From NCBI GenBank assembly GCA_038209745.1, contig JBBQXJ010000062.1, forward strand, positions 1 to 28,975: a stretch of 28,975 nucleotides of DNA. The letters are read 5' to 3'. Below the pieces are notes generated by a model. It did not search any database, was not told the origin of the DNA, and saw only the letters and a list, made by a program, of their open reading frames with translations. Made by a program: the position numbers and the translations under genes. The stretch comes from Verrucomicrobiota bacterium (GTDB lineage Bacteria > Verrucomicrobiota > Verrucomicrobiia > Limisphaerales > CANJSG01). This document shows, piece after piece, positions 5,071 through 16,538 of the stretch; position 1 is the stretch's first letter, and every line of letters starts with the position of its first letter.

Positions 5071-5946
5071 TCAGTGCGGGACCGAGGAAGAGGAAGGGAG
5101 ACGGGCTCGGAAATCTGAAAGTTCCGGGACGATTGCCAGCGCGTGCCCGTTGACGGCCGGTTCCCTGAGATCGGCCCACTCGGGTTCGTGGTCGAACACC
5201 CAGCGGTAGTAGTCGGCTTCCTTGAGATCCTTGGCCGCGGGTTCATCCAGCACCACGGTGCAGCGGGGATGGAGCTGCAGGGCGGTCGCGGAGATCATGC
5301 TGGAGAGCGGGCCCTCCAAGGCCTTGGCCACGATGGCGGCCTTGTCCTCGCCGGAGGCGAGCATGACGCAGCGCCGGGTTTCAAGGATCGTGCCGACCCC
5401 CATGGTGGCCGCGCGGAGGGGCATGTCTTCCGGTTTCAGGAAGAGGGGGCTGTTCTGGGCGCGGGTCACCGGCGAGAGCACCTTGACCCGGGTGCGTGAA
5501 CTGAGGCTGGAAAGAGGTTCGTTGAATCCCAGATGGCCGACCTTTCCGATGCCGACGAGCTGGAGATCGATGCCGCCGCACTCGCGGATTTTGTCTTCGT
5601 ACCGGGTGCATTCCTTCTCGAGATCTTCCGCCATGCCGTCGGGGAGGAAGGTGTTCTTCAGCTCGATGTTCACCTGAAGGAACAGGTGATGGTTCATGTA
5701 ATGCCGGTAGGAGTGGCGGTCTGAACCGGGCAGGCCGACGTATTCGTCGAGGTTGAAACTGCGGCAACCGGAGAAGTCGAGACCGTCCTCGCGATGCATC
5801 TTGCGGAGCCGGGCGTAAACCGCCTCCATCGTGCGTCCGGTGGCCAGCCCCAGGACCAGCTGAGGATTGGCCCTCAATTCCCGCGCGATGAGGCGAGCGA
5901 CGAGGTCGGCGGCGCAGTCGGCATTGGGTCTGATGATAACTTCCAC
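5071..5946 (-). CDS. nagB: Glucosamine-6-phosphate deaminase
   Basis: Motifs VLGLATGRTM, FNLDEYVGL, GIDLQLVGIGKVGHLGFNEP, SATALQLHP. Start placed at GTG 5946 (VEVIIRP); the track's extension to 6489 overlaps the divergent gene. Confidence 0.93.
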   Translation of the reverse strand: MEVIIRPNADCAADLVARLIARELRANPQLVLGLATGRTMEAVYARLRKMHREDGLDFSGCRSFNLDEYVGLPGSDRHSYRHYMNHHLFLQVNIELKNTFLPDGMAEDLEKECTRYEDKIRECGGIDLQLVGIGKVGHLGFNEPLSSLSSRTRVKVLSPVTRAQNSPLFLKPEDMPLRAATMGVGTILETRRCVMLASGEDKAAIVAKALEGPLSSMISATALQLHPRCTVVLDEPAAKDLKEADYYRWVFDHEPEWADLREPAVNGHALAIVPELSDFRARLPSSSSVPH

Positions 5947-5990
5947 GGTTCGAGAAATGTGTTTTGGACCTTCGTCAGGTGTTGGTTTTG

Positions 5991-6019
5991 CAACAATCCC
6001 CTCGAATTGGGGGTTGTTG
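5991..6019. promoter_or_regulatory. 11-bp imperfect inverted repeat in the nagB/PIG-L divergent intergenic region (candidate operator or hairpin)
   Basis: CAACAATCCCC-tcgaatt-GGGGGTTGTTG, 10/11 complementary arms. Confidence 0.45.
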
Positions 6020-6126
6020 GGGCAGGAGGACGATCCCGACTTTAAACACCGTACACAGCGGCCGGTTTCAGCTCGAATCGTCGGAAGATTCCATGCTGTT
6101 GTTGGCCCAATCGCTTTGCTTCTGAA

Positions 6127-6990
6127 ATGACCAATCCATACGCCGAATTCGCCGCATCTTTTGCCCGCTTGACCCGCTCTGGGCGTCACTTGCCTCTTGG
6201 AAGCATTGAACGCCCTGAACGGGTGGCGCCGGCTCCCGACGCGCCGGTGGCCTTGATTTTTGCACCGCATCCGGATGACGAGTGCATCATCGGTGGCCTG
6301 CCGCTCAGGCTCCGGCAAGAGGCGGCGTTTCGCGTGGTCGACGTGGCGGTGACCCAGGGCAGCAACCGCGAGCGACAGGCCGCCCGGTTGGAGGAGCTGG
6401 AGTCCGCGTGCGCCTGGATCGGCTTCGATCTCGAACAGACTGCGCCGAATGGTCTGGAACGCATCCAGCCAAGGACCCGCGAGACGCACGCTGCGGAATG
6501 GTCAAGCTCTGTCGAGGTCATCGTCGAGTCGCTGCGGCGGCATCGGCCCAAGGTCGTGTTCTTCCCGCATGCGCTGGACTGGAACGGAACGCACGTCGGC
6601 ACCCATCTGTTGGTGATGGATGCACTCGCCGCCCTGCCCGCCGACTTCACCTGCTTCGTGGTGGAGACCGAGTATTGGGGGCAGAACCCGTCGCCCAATC
6701 TGATGGTGGAATCATCGGAGGCGGACTTGGCGCAACTCCTGGCGGCGCTGTCGTTCCACGCCGGAGAAGTGCTGCGGAATCCCTTCCATCTTCGCATGCC
6801 GGCCTGGATGCAGGACAACGTCCGCCGGGGCGCGGAGCTGGTGGGCGGGCAGGGCGGTCCGGCCCCGGACTTTGATTTTGCCACGCTCTATCGGCTGAGA
6901 CGTTGGAAAGACGGAGGGCTGCGGGAGGTTCTCCGGGCCGGCCGCGTTCTGGGTGCGGGAGAGAATCCATCCGGGTTGTTCCAGAGCTGA
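6127..6990 (+). CDS. PIG-L/LmbE family deacetylase
   Basis: LIFAPHPDDECIIGG metal-binding motif, AVTQGS, R..ELESAC..IGF; divergent from nagB. Confidence 0.88.
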   Translation: MTNPYAEFAASFARLTRSGRHLPLGSIERPERVAPAPDAPVALIFAPHPDDECIIGGLPLRLRQEAAFRVVDVAVTQGSNRERQAARLEELESACAWIGFDLEQTAPNGLERIQPRTRETHAAEWSSSVEVIVESLRRHRPKVVFFPHALDWNGTHVGTHLLVMDALAALPADFTCFVVETEYWGQNPSPNLMVESSEADLAQLLAALSFHAGEVLRNPFHLRMPAWMQDNVRRGAELVGGQGGPAPDFDFATLYRLRRWKDGGLREVLRAGRVLGAGENPSGLFQS

Positions 6991-7022
6991 CCGACCGGCC
7001 GATGGGCCAAGGGCTCTGGATA

Positions 7023-7065
7023 GGGCAGGGTGCCCGAGTTTTTCCTGGGTCGCCACCCTTCGCCC
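7023..7065. terminator. Imperfect GC-rich hairpin between convergent genes (possible terminator)
   Basis: gggc-agggtg-cccgag-ttttt-cctggg-tcgc-caccct-tc-gccc; no clear U tract. Confidence 0.3.
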
Positions 7066-7153
7066 CATGCTCCGCTTCGGTCCGATGACGTGGACGAGAA
7101 CAGGAGGCTGAGCTGTCGCGTCCCAGGGCGAAGGCGGTCCGGTCGTTGCCGGA

Positions 7154-7915
7154 TCAGGGGGCGACGGGTCCGGCCGGGAGTCTGCGGAAACGGAGGTTCC
7201 GATAGGCTGCGGTGGTCTGGTATGTGCAGAGGCCGAGTGGCTTCGACATTTCTATTTCGCCTGAGCGCACGGTGATCTTCTTGCCTGCGGTTTCCAGGTC
7301 CACGACCGGTTTGCCGTCGACCCACACCATGACCTTTTCCGGGGTGACGCGGAGGCGAATCGGAAACCAACGATTGCGCTGCAAGTAGAGGCTGGTGGTC
7401 GTCTCGTTCCCGGAGGCGTCCTGCCCGTCGATGCTGGAAATGCCCACGACGGCCCCGCCCCACCCCCCGACGATGAAGGAGCAATACGCGTCGCCGACGG
7501 GGAAAGTGAGGCCGCAGAAGAAGTCCGACCCGTCGATCTTCATCGCTTCGAACTCGAGCTCGTATTGGGTGGTCGGGAAGCCGGCGGTGTTGGTCCAGTT
7601 CAAACCGCCGAGCGTTGCGCTCATTGGAACCAGGATCCGACCCTCGCTGGCTTCCGGGACGCTGCCGCCGCCGAAGTCCGTCCGTTTCCAACCGGTTAGA
7701 TCGCGCCCGTTGAACATCGAAGTCCAATTGGTGGAGCCAAGCGGAGTTGCCGCGATCGGCGCGGTCGGTGGAGCCTGCTTGGCCGACACGGCTCTCTCCT
7801 CAGGAGCTTCCGCCGGGCGGGGCGGAGTGAACGCTGGAGCAAGGTCGCGCTCCCGGCACCCGACGCCGAGCAGCACGAAGAGGATCGCCAGGGCTGGGAT
7901 GAATCGGCGGATCAT
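7154..7915 (-). CDS. DUF1080 (3-keto-disaccharide hydrolase-like) domain lipoprotein
   Basis: Lipobox-like signal LLGVGC; WTSMFNGRDLTGWK, YELEFEAMKIDGSDFFCGLTFPV, VGGWGGAVVGISSIDG. Confidence 0.85.
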   Translation of the reverse strand: MIRRFIPALAILFVLLGVGCRERDLAPAFTPPRPAEAPEERAVSAKQAPPTAPIAATPLGSTNWTSMFNGRDLTGWKRTDFGGGSVPEASEGRILVPMSATLGGLNWTNTAGFPTTQYELEFEAMKIDGSDFFCGLTFPVGDAYCSFIVGGWGGAVVGISSIDGQDASGNETTTSLYLQRNRWFPIRLRVTPEKVMVWVDGKPVVDLETAGKKITVRSGEIEMSKPLGLCTYQTTAAYRNLRFRRLPAGPVAP

Positions 7916-9941: not shown

Positions 9942-11467
9942 TTCGGCTTTGAGCCCACCGCATATAGCGTCTTCATCGTGGCGACGTAGAGCGCGCCGTT
10001 CGCGGCGGTGGCGGTGGCGTTGATGGCGCTGTCGAGCTTCACGCTGGAGAGCAGCTTCTTCTCCCGGCCTTGGGCGAAGGTGAGAAAATCTCCGCGCCGT
10101 GTGCCGAGGAAAAGCTTCCCATCCGCCGCCAGCACGGAGGCCCAGACATCGCTTCCCACGTCGTGGTCCCAGACCAATGCGCCGGTCTTCGCGTCCACGC
10201 AGTGCAGCATGTGCTGGGAATCCGCCGCGTAGACCAGGCCGCCGATCACCGTGGGGGTGGACATGGTGTGGCGCCCGAGCGGATGGCTCCAGACCAGGTT
10301 CTTCGCGGTGATGTCGCCGGTGCCGTGGGGATCGACGCGCTTGAGCCAGGCTTCGTTCTTGCCCCACCACCAGTCGCCGCCGCCGGCCACGAAGATCGCG
10401 CCGTCGGCGAAGACCGGCATGCCGAAGATGTTGCTGGGACCGACGCGGCGGTTGCCGAGGTAGGGATGGATGTCGCCTTTCGGGGCTTCGGGATCGCAGT
10501 CGAACTGCCAGACCTTGTGCAGCGTGGCGACCTCGCCATCGGCCGGAGTGCCGACCAGCGGATCGAACGCGTAGAGGACGCCGTTTCCGCCCGCGAAGAT
10601 GACCAGTTCCTTCCCGTTCACCGTCGCCAGGGCGGGTGAGGACCAGGTGCAGTGGAAGATGTTGGTGGCGATGTTTTCGCGGTCGCGGGCCAGCATGCGA
10701 CCGGTCTTCTTGTCGAGCACGACGAGGCTCGGGGCGTCGGGCGTGCGGATGACCTTGTGGGTGTTGTCCACGCCGGTGCCGGTGTTGAGATAGAGGTGGT
10801 CGCCGCGAATCAGGATCGAGCTGTGGGCGCCGTCGTGCGACCAGATGCCCGCTTTTGTGGTGAGGTTGAACGCCCAGAGAATGTCGGCGTCGATCGGAGC
10901 GAGCTTGCGCGGGGTGATTTCGGCGTTGGGCGCGTTGGTGTCGATCGGGACCATCCGTCGGCCTTCGTCGACGAAGGGGCCTTGGTTGCCATTGGTGAGG
11001 CCGTCGATGTCCATGCAGACGACGATGCCGCGGTTGTCCACGAGGTAGACGCGGTCGCCTTCGACTGTGGCGGGCGAGGACATGCCGGTCTTCGGCCAGT
11101 CGTGGTAGATGTCCTCCTCGCGCTTGGGGACGACCAGCTGCCATTTGAGTTCTCCGGTCTTTTCGTCGAGGCAGAGGTAAACCCCGCGGTCGCCGGTGTT
11201 TTCCGGATCACGTGGGTGTTCGTTGTTCGTGCCGATGAAAACGCGGCCGTGCGCGACCACCGGTGACGCGTAGGTCTCGCTCCCGAGCGGCGCTGTCCAG
11301 CGGATGTTCTTCCCGGTCTCAGGATCGAATGAATCAGGCAGGCCCGTTTCGGCCGAGACATGGTTGCGGTCCCAGGCCTGGCCCCATTGCGGCCGATCCT
11401 CGGCATGAACCGCCAAGCTGGCCAGGACGACTGCGGCGGCAACGGAGGCATGGAAAATGGGTCGCAT
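9938..11467 (-). CDS. PQQ-binding-like beta-propeller repeat protein (BamB-like fold), secreted
   Basis: Signal peptide from ATG 11467 (MRPIFHASVAAAVVLASLAVHA-EDRPQWG); blades NIRWTAPLGSETYASPVV, CLDEKTGELKWQ, CVDAKTGALVWDHD. Confidence 0.85.
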   Translation of the reverse strand: MRPIFHASVAAAVVLASLAVHAEDRPQWGQAWDRNHVSAETGLPDSFDPETGKNIRWTAPLGSETYASPVVAHGRVFIGTNNEHPRDPENTGDRGVYLCLDEKTGELKWQLVVPKREEDIYHDWPKTGMSSPATVEGDRVYLVDNRGIVVCMDIDGLTNGNQGPFVDEGRRMVPIDTNAPNAEITPRKLAPIDADILWAFNLTTKAGIWSHDGAHSSILIRGDHLYLNTGTGVDNTHKVIRTPDAPSLVVLDKKTGRMLARDRENIATNIFHCTWSSPALATVNGKELVIFAGGNGVLYAFDPLVGTPADGEVATLHKVWQFDCDPEAPKGDIHPYLGNRRVGPSNIFGMPVFADGAIFVAGGGDWWWGKNEAWLKRVDPHGTGDITAKNLVWSHPLGRHTMSTPTVIGGLVYAADSQHMLHCVDAKTGALVWDHDVGSDVWASVLAADGKLFLGTRRGDFLTFAQGREKKLLSSVKLDSAINATATAANGALYVATMKTLYAVGSKPN

Positions 11468-11740
11468 CGGCGGAATGTAGTGAACCAATCGGGCCGGGTA
11501 AATCCCCGGTATCGGCATCAGATGGGCGAGGCGCGCGGTGTGCACGATGCAATGACCGCCAACGAGGCTCATGCAAAGTCGCGGGTCGTTGGGAATTGGT
11601 TTGCGGGTTTTGGGTCAAACAAGGGTTGTTTTCCGGTTTAGCCGGGGTTTCCGGGTGGGCATCCATCCTGCGGTGGAAGTCGGGCTGAAGGTCGCGACTT
11701 CGATCCGGCCCGCCAAAACCAACCAGAAGAAACCCATTTT

Positions 11741-11938
11741 ATGAACAAGACCCCTGGAATCGTCCTGCTCGGCGTCGGAGTCGCGCTCATCGTGTTTGGA
11801 GTCAGCGCCTCGGATTCGATCGGATCCTCTGTCTCCCGTGCCTTCACCGGCACCCCAACCGACAAGTCCCTGTGGCTGCTGATCGGCGGTATCGGCGCCA
11901 CCATCGCCGGCGCGTTTGTTTCGTTCCGTCGCACATAG
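11741..11938 (+). CDS. DUF3185-like small membrane protein
   Basis: 65 aa, two TM helices, motif SDSIGSSVSRAFTGTPTDKSLWLLIGG. Confidence 0.8.
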   Translation: MNKTPGIVLLGVGVALIVFGVSASDSIGSSVSRAFTGTPTDKSLWLLIGGIGATIAGAFVSFRRT

Positions 11939-11966
11939 GTTCGCCGGGGATGGATGGATCCTTGCC

Positions 11967-11992
11967 GGGATGCAGATTTCCTGCGTCCTTTT
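11967..11992 (+). terminator. Hairpin plus short U tract after DUF3185 (or operator palindrome upstream of arsM)
   Basis: GGGATGCAG-atttc-CTGCGTCCT-TTT; stem includes G-U pairs. Confidence 0.45.
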
Positions 11993-12022
11993 GGGAACCG
12001 GACCGTCCATTCCGGTGTAACT

Positions 12023-12862
12023 ATGAGCACCATCAGCTTTCGACCCGCCAAACCCGATGCGGATCAAGTCCGTGAAGAAGTCCGCCGTCATTACGCCGCC
12101 GCCGTCGAAGGCTCCGGCTGTTGCGATACCGGCGGCTGCGGTGACGGCTCCTGCACCACGGAAGCGTCGGAACTCGGCTACACCGCCGAGGATATCGCGA
12201 ACCTTCCCGACGGAGCCGATCTTGGACTGGGTTGCGGCAATCCCCAAGCCATCGCCGCGTTGAAGCTGGGCGAAGTCGCCTTGGACCTCGGCAGCGGCGC
12301 TGGCTTCGACTGCTTCCTCGCGGCCAAAGCGGTGGGTCCGACTGGCCGCTCCATCGGAGTGGACATGACCCCGCAGATGTTGGCGAAGGCCCGGGAGAAC
12401 GCCCGCAAGGCCGGCTTCACGAACGTCGATTTTCGCCTCGGCGAGATCGAACATCTCCCGGTGGCCGACGCGACGGTCGACGTCATCCTGTCGAATTGTG
12501 TCATCAACCTGTCTCCGACCCAGCAGCAGGTTTTCCACGAGTCTTTCCGCGTGTTGAAACCCGGGGGACGACTGGCCGTCGCCGACATGGTGCGCACCGC
12601 CGAGCTGCCGCCTGAAGTCGCCCAGAGCTTGGCCGCGCTCTGCGGCTGCGTCTCCGGCGCGTCGTCGATCGAGGAACTGGAAGCGATGCTGACGAAGGCC
12701 GGCTTCGTGGACATCCGCATCCGGCCCAAGAACGAGAGCCGGTCGTTCGTCCGCCGCTGGGTGCCGGGCCGCGACGCCAGCGAGTTCGTGGTGTCCGCCA
12801 CGATCGAGGCGACCAAGCCGGGCGGCTGCGGGTGTGGACCGGAGGGCTGCGGGGCGGAATGA
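12023..12862 (+). CDS. arsM: Arsenite S-adenosylmethionine methyltransferase
   Basis: LGLGCGNP, LDLGSGAGFD, IGVDMTPQML, ILSNCVINLSP, LCGCVSGA, Cys-rich N- and C-termini; ATG 12023. Confidence 0.93.
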   Translation: MSTISFRPAKPDADQVREEVRRHYAAAVEGSGCCDTGGCGDGSCTTEASELGYTAEDIANLPDGADLGLGCGNPQAIAALKLGEVALDLGSGAGFDCFLAAKAVGPTGRSIGVDMTPQMLAKARENARKAGFTNVDFRLGEIEHLPVADATVDVILSNCVINLSPTQQQVFHESFRVLKPGGRLAVADMVRTAELPPEVAQSLAALCGCVSGASSIEELEAMLTKAGFVDIRIRPKNESRSFVRRWVPGRDASEFVVSATIEATKPGGCGCGPEGCGAE

Positions 12863-13428
12863 ACCCGACCGTCGAACAGCTCTGGCTCACCTTCGCCGGC
12901 GAACTGCTCGGGTTCATCCGTTCGCGGGTGAAGGACCCCGCGGTGGCCGACGATATTCTCCAGGACGTCTTCCTGAAGATCCACCAGCGGCTGTCCTCGC
13001 TGCGCAGCGCGGAAAAGGCGCAATCGTGGGTCTACCAGATCGCGCGCAATGCGATCGTCGACCACGTTCGCAGCCAGACGAAGGACGCGTCGGTGGAGCA
13101 TTCGGCCCAGATCGAGTTTCGGGCGCCGATCTCGGTGGCTCCTGCGACTCCCGATTTGTCCCCCATCATCCGCCAGTTCGTGGACCAGCTTCCGAAGGGC
13201 TTCCGCGACGCGTTGATCGCGACGGAATGGGAAGGTCTTACCCAGGCCGAATACGCGGCGAAGTCCGGTCTGTCGCTCAGCGGCGCCAAGTCCCGGGTGC
13301 AGCGAGCCAGGGCGGAGCTGCGGCGTCTACTCGACGACTGCTGCCGCTTCGAACTCGACCGCCGTGGCAAGGTGCTGGAAGCGGTGCCGCGTCGCGCCAA
13401 CAGCCCCTGCGACGGCGTCTGCTGCTGA
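12859..13428 (+). CDS. sigZ: ECF RNA polymerase sigma factor, SigZ-like, with Cys-rich C-terminus
   Basis: Region 2 ADDILQDVFLKIH...SWVYQIARNAIVDH; region 4 EGLTQAEYAAKSGLSLSGAKSRVQRAR; tail DDCCRFELDRRG...PCDGVCC; ATGA overlap with arsM. Confidence 0.88.
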   Translation: MNPTVEQLWLTFAGELLGFIRSRVKDPAVADDILQDVFLKIHQRLSSLRSAEKAQSWVYQIARNAIVDHVRSQTKDASVEHSAQIEFRAPISVAPATPDLSPIIRQFVDQLPKGFRDALIATEWEGLTQAEYAAKSGLSLSGAKSRVQRARAELRRLLDDCCRFELDRRGKVLEAVPRRANSPCDGVCC

Positions 13429-13430
13429 TC

Positions 13431-14099
13431 ATGCAACGCCACCGACTCTTCGGCGAATTCTTCGGAACGTTCGCCCTGATCTTTGCCGGCACCGGTGCGG
13501 TGGTGGTGAACCAGACGCAGAACGGCGTGATCGGCCATGCCGGCGTGGCGTTGGTCTGGGGGTTGGTCGTGCTGGCGATGATCTACGCCTTTGGTGACGT
13601 TTCAGGGGCGCACTTCAATCCGGCGGTGACCCTGGGCTTTTGTGCTGCCGGCCGTTTCACCCTGCGCGAGGCCGTTCCGTATATCGCGGTCCAATGCGTG
13701 GCGGCGACGGCGGCCAGCGGGCTTTTGCATGTGCTGTTCCCGACGAATGAACTCCTGGGCTCGACCCGACCAGCCGGACCGGCGTGGCAATCGTGGGTGC
13801 TGGAACTGGTGCTTACTTGGATCCTTATGCTGGTGGTGTTGAACGTCTCCACCGGCCCGAAGGAGAAGGGAGTTACCGCCGGCATCGCCGTGGGCGCGGT
13901 CATCGGTATGGAAGCGATGTTCGCCGGGCCCGTTTCCGGCGCCTCGATGAATCCCGCCCGCTCCTTCGGGCCCGCCCTCGTTTCCGGCCACCTCGACGTG
14001 CTCTGGATCTACCTTTCCGCCCCGGTCCTCGGCGCCCTGCTCGCGGTGCCGTCGCGGTGGCTGCTCGAAGCCCCCAAGAATCCGATCGATCTCCCATGA
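13431..14099 (+). CDS. MIP family channel (NIP-like aquaglyceroporin; probable arsenite channel)
   Basis: [16 protein letters not shown] and [13 protein letters not shown]; starts 2 nt after the sigZ stop. Confidence 0.92.
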
Positions 14100-14542
14100 C
14101 CCACGCCGCCAAACCCACCGTCCTCATCCTCTGCACCGGCAATTCGTGCCGCAGCCATCTCGCCGAAGGTCTGCTGCGCGCGGCGGCTGGAGACCTGCTC
14201 GACGTTCAGAGCGCCGGCTCGAAACCCGCCGGCTACGTCCATCCGATGGCCATCGAAGCCATGCGCGAAGTCGGGATCGACCTCGCGGGTCACCATTCGA
14301 AGCACATGGACGAATTCCTCCAGCGACCGGTGGAAACGGTCATCACCGTTTGCGGCAACGCGGACCAGGCCTGCCCGACCTTTCCCGGACAGGTGAACCG
14401 CCACCATTGGGGCTTCGACGATCCGGCCCACGCCACCGGGACCGATGCCGAGAAGATGGCCGTGTTCCGCCGGGTGCGCGACGAGATCAAACGCGTCTTC
14501 GAAGCCTATGCGGGGGGTCGACGGGATGCGCAGAAGGCGTAG
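14096..14542 (+). CDS. arsC: Arsenate reductase, LMW-PTP (thioredoxin-type) family
   Basis: [16 protein letters not shown]-loop, [36 protein letters not shown] overlap with the aquaporin gene. Confidence 0.93.
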
Positions 14543-14577
14543 GGCGCATCGTGGACGTCGCACTGAATGACGACCCC

Positions 14578-15183
14578 ATGAACGCCACCGAACGATTGAC
14601 CCGCCAGATCGGCTTTGTCCTCGAAGCCGAGAAGCTGAAGGCCGTCCTGCGACGGACCTCGCCAGTGGGCGCGGAACGCCGCGAAAACTCGGCCGAGCAT
14701 AGTTGGACATTGGCGCTCATGGCCGTGTTGCTGGCGGAGCATTCGAACCGGCCCGTCGATCTCGACCGCGTGCTGCAGATGATCCTCGTCCATGACCTCG
14801 TGGAGATCGACGCGGGCGACACCTTCCACTACGACGCCGCAGCCGTGGCGACGAAGGCGGAGCGCGAGACCCGGGCGGCGGAGCGGATCTTCGGGCTGCT
14901 GCCCGACGAGCAGGGGTTGGAGCTGCGGAGACTCTGGAACGAGTTCGAGGCCGGCCGGACCGCCGAGGCCCGCTTCGCCGGCGCGTTGGATCGCTTGGCC
15001 CCGATGCTCCAGAACTTCCACAACGCCGGTGGCAGCTGGCTCCGGCACGGCGTCACCAGCCAGCAGGTGACGGAGCGCAACGGGAACATCGTCCTTGGTT
15101 CCGAGCGGCTCTGGGAGTTCGCCGTCGAGCTGATCCGGGAGGCGGAGGCGAAGGGATTCTTCGCCGGTGACGACGCTGGATGA
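14578..15183 (+). CDS. HD-domain hydrolase (HD_3/YfbR-like)
   Basis: KLKAVLRRT, RENSAEHSW, ILVHDLVEIDAGD, LWNEFE, ALDRLAP. Alternative start GTG 14551. Confidence 0.88.
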   Translation: MNATERLTRQIGFVLEAEKLKAVLRRTSPVGAERRENSAEHSWTLALMAVLLAEHSNRPVDLDRVLQMILVHDLVEIDAGDTFHYDAAAVATKAERETRAAERIFGLLPDEQGLELRRLWNEFEAGRTAEARFAGALDRLAPMLQNFHNAGGSWLRHGVTSQQVTERNGNIVLGSERLWEFAVELIREAEAKGFFAGDDAG

Positions 15184-15254
15184 CCCCACGTTCGGGTGGG
15201 TTCCTCCAAAAGTCTTGGTCCCGTTCCGTGGCCCGGGCATAAACCTCCCCGACC

Positions 15255-16538
<1,284 letters not shown>

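Follow-up and report, generated by a model that had tools for sequence, protein, structure and literature searches.

A SigZ-type sigma factor with a cysteine-rich tail in an arsenic operon of a Verrucomicrobiota bacterium: a candidate self-activating detoxification system

What does an alternative sigma factor do in the middle of an arsenic operon, and which signal would it answer to? The question is raised by a stretch of 28,975 nucleotides (nt), hereafter the window, which is contig C62 of a 4.58-Mb assembly of a Verrucomicrobiota bacterium (140 contigs, 92% complete). Four open reading frames (ORFs) are tightly packed on its plus strand at 12023-12862, 12859-13428, 13431-14099 and 14096-14542, as seen both in the ORF list and by direct reading; in this order they are arsM, sigZ, the gene of a MIP-family channel and arsC. 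To our knowledge, the control of bacterial ars genes has been described almost wholly in terms of ArsR-type repressors. On balance we favour the view that the window carries a self-contained, positively autoregulated arsenic-detoxification operon, in which the SigZ-type sigma factor probably reads the promoter and its cysteine-rich tail would sense a thiol-seeking ligand. The comparison of sequences shows what the four genes are, that they are coupled and that their linkage is conserved, and it yields a promoter whose occurrence co-varies with that of the sigma factor.

The arsM-sigZ pair and its conservation

The second gene (12859-13428, plus strand) encodes a sigma factor of the extracytoplasmic function (ECF) class, 189 amino acids (aa) long. 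Sigma70_r2 (PF04542) spans residues 13-74 and Sigma70_r4_2 (PF08281) spans residues 104-154, which places the protein among the ECF (group 4) sigma-70 factors. It is of the SigZ type (ECF238/ECF24-like) and scores 176 bits with the SigZ model TIGR02959, above the cut-off of 168.65; with a further SigZ model, NF007215, it reaches 186 bits, which is under the cut-off of 212. It is the single SigZ above the cut-off among the 28 ECF-like matches of the genome. The first gene (12023-12862, plus strand) encodes ArsM, an As(III) S-adenosylmethionine methyltransferase of 279 aa (NF008823, 339.9 bits, cut-off 263; Methyltransf_31). The cysteine-bearing motifs of this enzyme are GCCDTGGC, GLGCGNP, SNCVINL and ALCGCVSG, which may match the catalytic cysteines of studied ArsM enzymes. 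Note that ArsM also ends in a cysteine-rich tail, GGCGCGPEGCG (12800-12859), a second thiol cluster that is encoded just ahead of sigZ.

An earlier note, made from the sequence of the window, had claimed that the four genes are translationally coupled, that all five cysteines of the sigma factor lie in its last ~30 residues, and that the window holds no ArsR, no Acr3 or ArsB and no anti-sigma gene. These claims are borne out. Direct reading confirms ATGA start/stop overlaps at 12859-12862 (arsM/sigZ) and 14096-14099 (MIP/arsC) and a gap of 2 nt at 13429-13430 (sigZ/MIP). The cysteines are at positions 161, 162, 184, 188 and 189 of 189, i.e. within the last 29 residues, with zero elsewhere. Profile searches gave zero matches to HTH_5/ArsR on contig C62 and zero matches to Acr3 (TIGR00832) and ArsB (PF02040) in the whole 92%-complete assembly. 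In a Pfam scan of 28 window ORFs, several of them without any match, no anti-sigma family turned up. Since neighbouring genes of the operon either overlap or are separated by just 2 nt, there is no space between them for a further gene such as an anti-sigma gene. Two hallmarks of a canonical ars operon, an operon-encoded ArsR and an ArsB or Acr3 pump, are thus missing here.

The neighbourhood of the sigma gene was surveyed in 401 genomes of the phylum, 14 of which carry 15 SigZ-type genes at E <= 1e-30 (the window included). The search, by tblastn with the window proteins and by Pfam on candidate ORFs, extended ~10 kb to either side of these genes, or over the entire contig where this was shorter. 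At 12 of the 14 loci other than the window's own, arsM and sigZ share a strand and are adjacent or separated by a single gene (13/15 with the window). The layouts around the pair vary: acr3 divergent from arsM-sigZ, arsM-GNAT-sigZ-arsC-acr3, arsM-sigZ-arsR-arsC-acr3, sigZ-arsM-arsR-arsP and arsR-arsC-acr3-arsM-sigZ are all found. One locus (L074) has exactly the order of the window, arsM-sigZ-MIP-arsC, and the closest relative (L045, 73% identity) reads DUF3185-arsM-sigZ-acr3-arsC, while in L106 and L109 arsR is inserted after sigZ and before MIP-arsC. The two exceptions without arsM are L037 and L039, the latter being the second SigZ copy of genome G321. In L039 (10310-11998) this paralogue is divergent to a flavin monooxygenase and a transporter of the major facilitator superfamily; the monooxygenase has weak similarity to ArsO (52 bits, far under the cut-off of 425).

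A wider scan, with one genome per species, gave 436 relatives, and the context and the motif described below were counted in the best 80 of them. Cultivated carriers among the relatives are Ktedonosporobacter rubrisoli, Dictyobacter species and Tengunoibacter tsumagoiensis. Among these best 80, arsM is found within 3 kb on the same strand at 63 loci, and at least one ars gene at 75. The arsM-linked relatives come from Verrucomicrobiota, Chloroflexota, Ignavibacteria, Bacteroidota, Desulfobacterota, Planctomycetota and Methylomirabilota. Twelve of the 17 loci without arsM carry arsC, MIP, arsP, acr3 or arsR, and at 4 of the 17 sigZ is close to a contig end or soon followed by it. The order of the two genes is not constant: arsM-sigZ (25 loci) is typical of Verrucomicrobiota and a few others, and sigZ-arsM (51 loci) is found in Chloroflexota, Ignavibacteria, Bacteroidota, Desulfobacterota and Planctomycetota. 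Since the gene order differs between lineages, the pairing of arsM and sigZ has apparently outlived rearrangement.

Seen from the side of the methyltransferase, ArsM is above the cut-off in 46 of the 401 phylum genomes and SigZ-linked in 13 of these 46. By our own tally the linkage is concentrated in the class or order of the window (12 among 16 such genomes, versus 1 among the 30 from the rest of the phylum). In a quick tree, the window sigma factor falls into a mostly verrucomicrobial clade of 29 rows (SH-aLRT branch support 98), in which 23 rows are arsM-linked and the other 6 stand beside arsC/MIP.

In several Verrucomicrobiota (L034, L036, L040, L041, L042 and L115) a GNAT gene lies between arsM and sigZ. 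The one in L036 (9180-9731) is ArsN2 by score (143.5 bits, cut-off 125), and those of L041 and L042 fail the cut-off.

A promoter motif that accompanies the sigma factor

The regions upstream of the related loci were examined by counting every dyad of a 5-mer, a gap and a 4-mer, and by comparing the counts with those of shuffled sequences. The top dyads were GCGTC-N16-CGTC upstream of sigZ (43/68 regions), GCGTC-N17-GTCT in the spacers between sigZ and arsM (38/51) and TGCGT-N17-CGTC upstream of operons that begin with arsM (21/24 regions); in the shuffled sequences the maximum for any dyad was only 3-4 sequences. The 87 instances give the consensus TGCGTCCTTTT-N11-(C)CGTCT.

In the window, the putative SigZ-family promoter lies at 11982-12008 on the plus strand, with a -35-like element TGCGTCCTTTT at 11982-11992 and a -10-like element CCGTCC at 12003-12008, as indicated by the dyads, a position weight matrix (PWM) and the count in the window. 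Its sequence, TGCGTCCTTTTGGGAACCGGACCGTC at 11982-12007, ends 15 nt ahead of the ATG of arsM. The motif occurs once in the window against 0.01 expected matches, and a PWM scan of the 4.58-Mb assembly, both strands included, leaves this site (24.0 bits) as the sole one to exceed 14 bits. The SigZ regulon in this genome is accordingly small as predicted from the motif, i.e. it would be the operon itself. A second site found by a looser regular expression (C72:19447) was dismissed as a chance match, as it has another spacing and lies inside a long minus-strand ORF. No sigma-70-type promoter was found by a scan of 11400-15400.

Does the motif belong to arsM or to the sigma factor? As a control set we took the 33 arsM loci without a strong SigZ in that sample of the phylum, and sought the motif within 300 nt upstream of arsM. 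It was present at 1 of these 33 loci; among SigZ-linked loci it was present at 11 of 13 within the phylum and at 48 of 62 in other phyla. The sole match in the control set, L163 (G252:C13, 2399-3774), has a weak SigZ-like gene directly upstream of arsM (67 bits, tblastn), a divergent SigZ member that was missed at E <= 1e-30, together with a variant of the motif, TGCGTCTTTTTT...CCCGTC. Judging from these counts, the motif seems to travel with the sigma factor and not with arsM. The simplest reading of this co-variation is that SigZ reads the motif, and since sigZ lies within the operon behind the motif, the system would be positively autoregulated. It is thus most likely, as far as comparison of loci can tell, that the sigma factor transcribes its own operon. 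The same activation had been proposed in the earlier note, and the motif upstream of the operon together with its near absence from loci without the sigma factor supports it well on comparative grounds.

Two further features of the promoter region deserve mention. In L033, L034, L036, L040 and L045 the distance from the -10-like element to the ATG of arsM is 11-14 nt, which suggests nearly leaderless arsM mRNAs in several Verrucomicrobiota. Furthermore, direct reading reveals an inverted repeat, ACCGGA-N8-TCCGGT (11997-12016, plus strand), that brackets the -10 element and could be an operator or a 5' hairpin; L045 has a partly similar CCGG...CCGG arrangement.

The cysteine-rich tail, the signal and the place of ArsR

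The C-terminal extension of the sigma factor, residues 161-189 (13339-13425, plus strand), has the pattern CC-x21-C-x3-CC and was delimited by sequence, alignment and an AlphaFold2 model. In an alignment of 83 relatives every sequence has C161 and C162, and C184 is kept in at least 90%. At least three cysteines from the CC pair onward are found in 90 of 91 relatives; the remaining one, L033, was missed by the search pattern, and its tail has the CC pair and one further cysteine. In 57 of the 91 the cysteines are restricted to the CC pair and the residues after it. The distal cysteines vary in spacing and number, so that tails across the relatives hold 3 to 8 cysteines. The model is confident, with a predicted local distance difference test score of 89.4, and its fold matches ECF sigma structures; in it the last helix of sigma-4 gives way to a beta-hairpin (162-166 and 172-177), formed by the tail, and then to a coil that bears cysteines and is predicted with less confidence. 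Fold and sequence searches of the PDB returned generic ECF sigma factors only, and the profile coverage stops at position 158, i.e. the tail is uncovered.

These traits can be compared with those of described ECF groups. According to the available text of PMC7826278, group ECF238 merges the former ECF24 and ECF44, carries at its C terminus a cysteine-rich extension that is about 20 aa long, acts without an anti-sigma factor and includes SigZ of Bacillus subtilis, listed as ECF238s9. The window sigma factor likewise has such an extension (29 residues after sigma-4, with five cysteines) and no anti-sigma family in its context, and it is assigned to ECF238 by way of SigZ, a listed member (ECF238s9). 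CorE and CorE2 of Myxococcus xanthus (former ECF44, CorE2 in ECF238) are described as similar in design, i.e. as ECF sigma factors without an anti-sigma factor whose activity is switched by a thiophilic metal at a C-terminal cysteine-rich domain; CorE2 is activated by Cd and Zn in this way (PMC7826278; PMC8999054, as far as their available text goes), whereas for the window sigma factor the ligand would be deduced from its context. The available text of PMC8999054 also gives a CxC motif within the sigma2-sigma4 linker as the CorE-like signature, confined to former ECF44 members. The window sigma factor has no cysteine before residue 161 and thus no linker CxC, hence it is ECF24/SigZ-like and not strictly CorE-like. 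It also differs in its target, an operon for arsenic methylation and reduction and not one for the export of Cu, Cd or Zn. B. subtilis SigZ itself (TIGR02959; ECF238, mostly former ECF24) shares the short cysteine-bearing tail and the lack of an anti-sigma factor in the available descriptions, but it has no known function there, whereas the family of the window has a conserved promoter and a conserved partner, arsM. OrbS of Burkholderia cenocepacia is, in the accessible part of its description, another ECF sigma factor with an on-board sensor, from a different ECF group and with iron as the signal.

From the layout and these analogies we infer three roles: the sigma factor as the reader of the promoter, the tail as the sensor and arsenic as the ligand. 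The ECF-type promoter at 11982-12008 would drive arsM, sigZ, the MIP gene and arsC as a single, translationally coupled transcript, and SigZ, the product of the second gene, would read that promoter. Basal sigma factor may come from read-through, perhaps out of the upstream DUF3185 gene. If the tail works as in CorE2, binding of As(III) or methylarsenite to its cysteines would switch the sigma factor to its active state without an anti-sigma factor. Given the layout, positive feedback would then raise ArsC, ArsM and the MIP channel. In accordance with their family functions, ArsC would reduce arsenate, ArsM would methylate As(III) and the channel would release trivalent or methylated species. 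Arsenic sensing by the tail is suggested by the target genes and not by the tail itself.

Compared with the ArsR/SmtB repressors, the sigma factor would do the same job, i.e. the arsenic response of ars genes, with a comparable chemistry of clustered cysteine thiolates, but the fold is different and the logic would be one of switching on, amplified by positive feedback, and not one of lifting a repression. C-terminal vicinal cysteines are used by some ArsRs, and a two-cysteine ArsR is selective for MAs(III). The earlier note had placed the sigma factor where ArsR would be expected, and had envisaged a survey of SigZ homologues for conserved ars linkage, with arsM enriched and arsR depleted, as well as a search of the genome for arsR. 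The conserved linkage was found, as described above, but a clear depletion of arsR was not. A profile built from five ArsRs of SigZ loci detects ArsR-family genes in 25 of 93 SigZ loci. ArsR lies within ~3 kb of arsM at 4 of 13 SigZ-linked phylum loci versus 14 of 33 loci without SigZ, and ArsR depletion at SigZ-linked arsM loci is therefore not clear from these counts. The genome search was fruitful: there are seven HTH_5 matches on other contigs. One of them, with 109 aa, belongs to the ArsR/SmtB metalloregulators (NF033788, 76.5 bits) and has a cysteine near the N terminus as well as a C-terminal CC pair; it is encoded at C66:9900-10300 (locus L001, 1432-1761), directly upstream of pstS- and pstC-like genes, and may be an arsenic-responsive regulator of phosphate/arsenate uptake. 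The genome also encodes an ArsR-methyltransferase fusion and a small ArsR. With trans paralogues in the genome and ArsR-family genes beside SigZ in part of the loci, the notion of the sigma factor as a plain substitute for ArsR was abandoned; judging from the co-occurrence counts, the sigma factor is rather a partner of arsM. In L106 and L109, MIP-arsC follow arsR and arsM-sigZ follow the SigZ promoter, whereas in the window and in L074 there is no arsR and all four genes stand behind the SigZ promoter. It appears from this comparison that in the lineage of the window the sigma factor took over the whole operon.

A separate observation concerns Chloroflexota. In L066, L067, L095, L108, L110 and L123 (~5300-7500) the ArsR profile matches frames of ~270-310 codons that also cover the arsC match; these may be ArsR-ArsC fusions, or adjacent genes in one frame.

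The family reaches beyond arsenic. In a sample of 401 Bacteroidota genomes, 106 have a SigZ match at E <= 1e-25 and 12 are above the cut-off; the 30 best loci were inspected with ~1.5 kb on each side, as far as the contig reached. Among these, arsM is present in 4, an ArsI/CadI-family enzyme with acr3 in 2, and thioredoxin with ArsP in 1, and the remaining ones have DinB, DUF2807, glyoxalase, GNAT or other neighbours. Linkage of the entire SigZ family to arsM was therefore rejected. In L133 (2038-3504) and L136 (4-1399) the ArsI/CadI-family enzyme (147.6 bits, cut-off 116) and acr3, which take the place of arsM, come after the SigZ relative and stand behind the family motif. In a Bacteroidota SigZ clade (L138, L140, L141, L143, L146, L150, L151 and L154) the tails total 7-8 cysteines; here sigZ lies between genes for DinB-family, DUF2807 and DUF1801 proteins without a known arsenic role, and in several of these loci the motif is found on both sides of sigZ.

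A number of points speak against an arsenic-sensing, self-activating operon. The strict promoter motif is present at 22 of the 30 Bacteroidota loci and recognised ars genes at only 7 of them, and the tail with its CC pair and distal cysteines is likewise found in SigZ relatives without arsenic neighbours. Since tail and motif occur at Bacteroidota loci without ars genes, the ligand of SigZ need not be arsenic, and the tail appears to be a sensor module of the whole SigZ/ECF238 family and not an adaptation to arsenic. Similarly, as the motif accompanies varied neighbours, the promoter specificity seems to be family-wide, with targets that vary by clade. Four or five of the tail cysteines might just as well make up a Zn site, structural or redox-active. 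For ECF238 overall, the available part of the supplement of PMC7826278 (Casas-Pastor et al.) describes the predicted promoters as not conserved and autoregulation as absent, and it gives a conserved context for subgroup s2 only (permease and thioredoxin). The related loci themselves served to train the PWM, hence the dyad counts and the controls are the unbiased part of the evidence. From the -10 element to the ATG there are only 15 nt, so that the arsM mRNA would be nearly leaderless, unless the start codon is mis-set. Finally, none of the 24 sequencing runs listed for the locus is an RNA run (20 of the 24 contain half or more of the sampled words), and the ArsR encoded on C66 could supply the arsenic response in trans.

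This last point leads to an alternative in which the sigma factor only amplifies, the first transcripts are gated by an ArsR in trans (e.g. the one on C66) or by read-through, and the tail is a structural Zn site. CC plus CxxC or CxC is a frequent Zn-binding pattern, the inverted repeat brackets the -10 element, the genome has its seven HTH_5 matches including the 109-aa protein with the C-terminal CC, and in 25 of 93 SigZ loci an ArsR-family gene is in the same cluster, as in L044 (arsR-arsC-acr3-arsM-sigZ) or in L106 and L109 (arsM-sigZ-arsR-...-MIP-arsC). However, the other 68 of the 93 loci have no ArsR in the available flank, the ArsR on C66 adjoins pstS-pstC, which suggests a local target of its own, and the characterised ECF238 factors CorE and CorE2 sense through their cysteine-rich domain; a distal cysteine number that ranges from 3 to 8 would also be unusual for a fixed structural site. 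We regard this amplifier scheme as unlikely. The varied Bacteroidota targets, i.e. ArsI/CadI with Acr3, thioredoxin with ArsP, DinB, glyoxalase, GNAT and rhodanese, point in yet another direction, in which SigZ would be a general sensor of thiol stress or soft metals (Cd, Sb, Hg, Cu, electrophiles, disulfide stress) and the ars genes one of several outputs of the family. The responses of CorE to Cu and of CorE2 to Cd and Zn fit such a sensor, but the only strong promoter site of the genome drives arsenic genes, all loci of the 29-member clade carry arsM or arsC/MIP, and ars genes are found at nearly all of the best 80 of the 436 relatives, as counted above. We therefore hold a general sensor to be quite improbable for the window.

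It might also be argued that the sigma gene merely resides in the ars operon and controls unrelated genes elsewhere, all the more as B. subtilis SigZ is without a known regulon or phenotype in the available text of PMC7826278. This is very hard to reconcile with the family motif directly upstream of the window arsM, with the lack of a second strong site in the genome (the weaker C72 match being different in spacing and inside a long ORF) and with the co-variation of motif and sigma factor; such hitch-hiking is already disfavoured and we give it hardly any weight. In the opposite direction, one may speculate that SigZ-type sigma factors are widespread one-component activators dedicated to organoarsenical metabolism, in which the CC pair and the distal cysteines bind methylarsenite or As(III) and turn on the family promoter. 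The products of arsM, arsP, arsI/CadI and arsN2 make, export, cleave or modify organoarsenicals, and this broader role would explain why they are partners of sigZ; we consider it a tentative and rather doubtful generalisation. The positively autoregulated operon with SigZ as its activator thus remains the reading that we prefer.

The remaining operon genes and the meaning of the system

The third gene (13431-14099, plus strand) encodes a MIP-family channel of 222 aa with two NPA motifs (PF00230, 170 bits); relatives with 63-66% identity occupy the same position in L049, L074, L106 and L109. As neither Acr3 nor ArsB was found in the assembly, As(III) or methylated arsenicals probably leave the cell through this channel. 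The arrangement resembles aquaglyceroporin-type ars operons, in which a MIP channel next to arsC replaces the ArsB/Acr3 pump. Such operons, with AqpS of Sinorhizobium meliloti as the example, are ArsR-controlled and are not known to carry arsM or a sigma factor. The fourth gene, arsC (14096-14542, plus strand), encodes a probable arsenate reductase of 148 aa of the low-molecular-weight-phosphatase / thioredoxin type (LMWPc PF01451, 71.8 bits); its best NCBIfam model is TIGR02691, thioredoxin-type ArsC, with 138 bits, below the cut-off of 174, and its homologues in related ars clusters are 70-86% identical. A tblastn match to 'Acr3' at 14350-15111 (E 9e-09) was judged an alternative-frame artefact: the first ~127 residues of the query ORF precede the SBF domain and overlap the adjacent arsC in another frame, and the Acr3 model is empty genome-wide.

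Directly upstream of the operon and outside its promoter lies the gene of a small DUF3185 membrane protein (11741-11938, plus strand; PF11381), which is found in the same position in the closest relative, L045 (279-470, 82% identity). The genes around the operon resemble housekeeping genes in the Pfam scan of the window ORFs. The G+C content of the operon is 0.65-0.67, compared with 0.61-0.66 in the nearest flanking kilobases. Terminator-like matches in 11400-15400 are not in excess (5, shuffle mean 3.0). According to their labels, the DNA runs that hold the stretch include sediment and soil metagenomes.

In full-text literature searches of limited coverage we found no paper that links SigZ/ECF238 sigma factors to arsM or to ars operons; the string 'arsen' is absent from the main texts of PMC7826278 and PMC8999054 and from the available portion of the supplement of PMC7826278. 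What is new is thus a candidate ECF238-type one-component sigma factor wired to arsenic methylation and detoxification, with arsM as a conserved partner and with a conserved promoter. If true, arsenic resistance would gain a second regulatory logic, one in which a sigma factor switches on arsM and entire ars operons with positive feedback, and this candidate logic spans Verrucomicrobiota, Chloroflexota, Ignavibacteria, Bacteroidota, Desulfobacterota and Planctomycetota. The unit is small, i.e. one promoter and one protein of 189 aa, and could serve as a part of an arsenic biosensor. The SigZ/ECF24 part of ECF238, described in the available text of PMC7826278 as having neither a known function nor a conserved promoter, would gain both. 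Moreover, the system would bear on when environmental bacteria methylate arsenic, which is relevant to soils and sediments.

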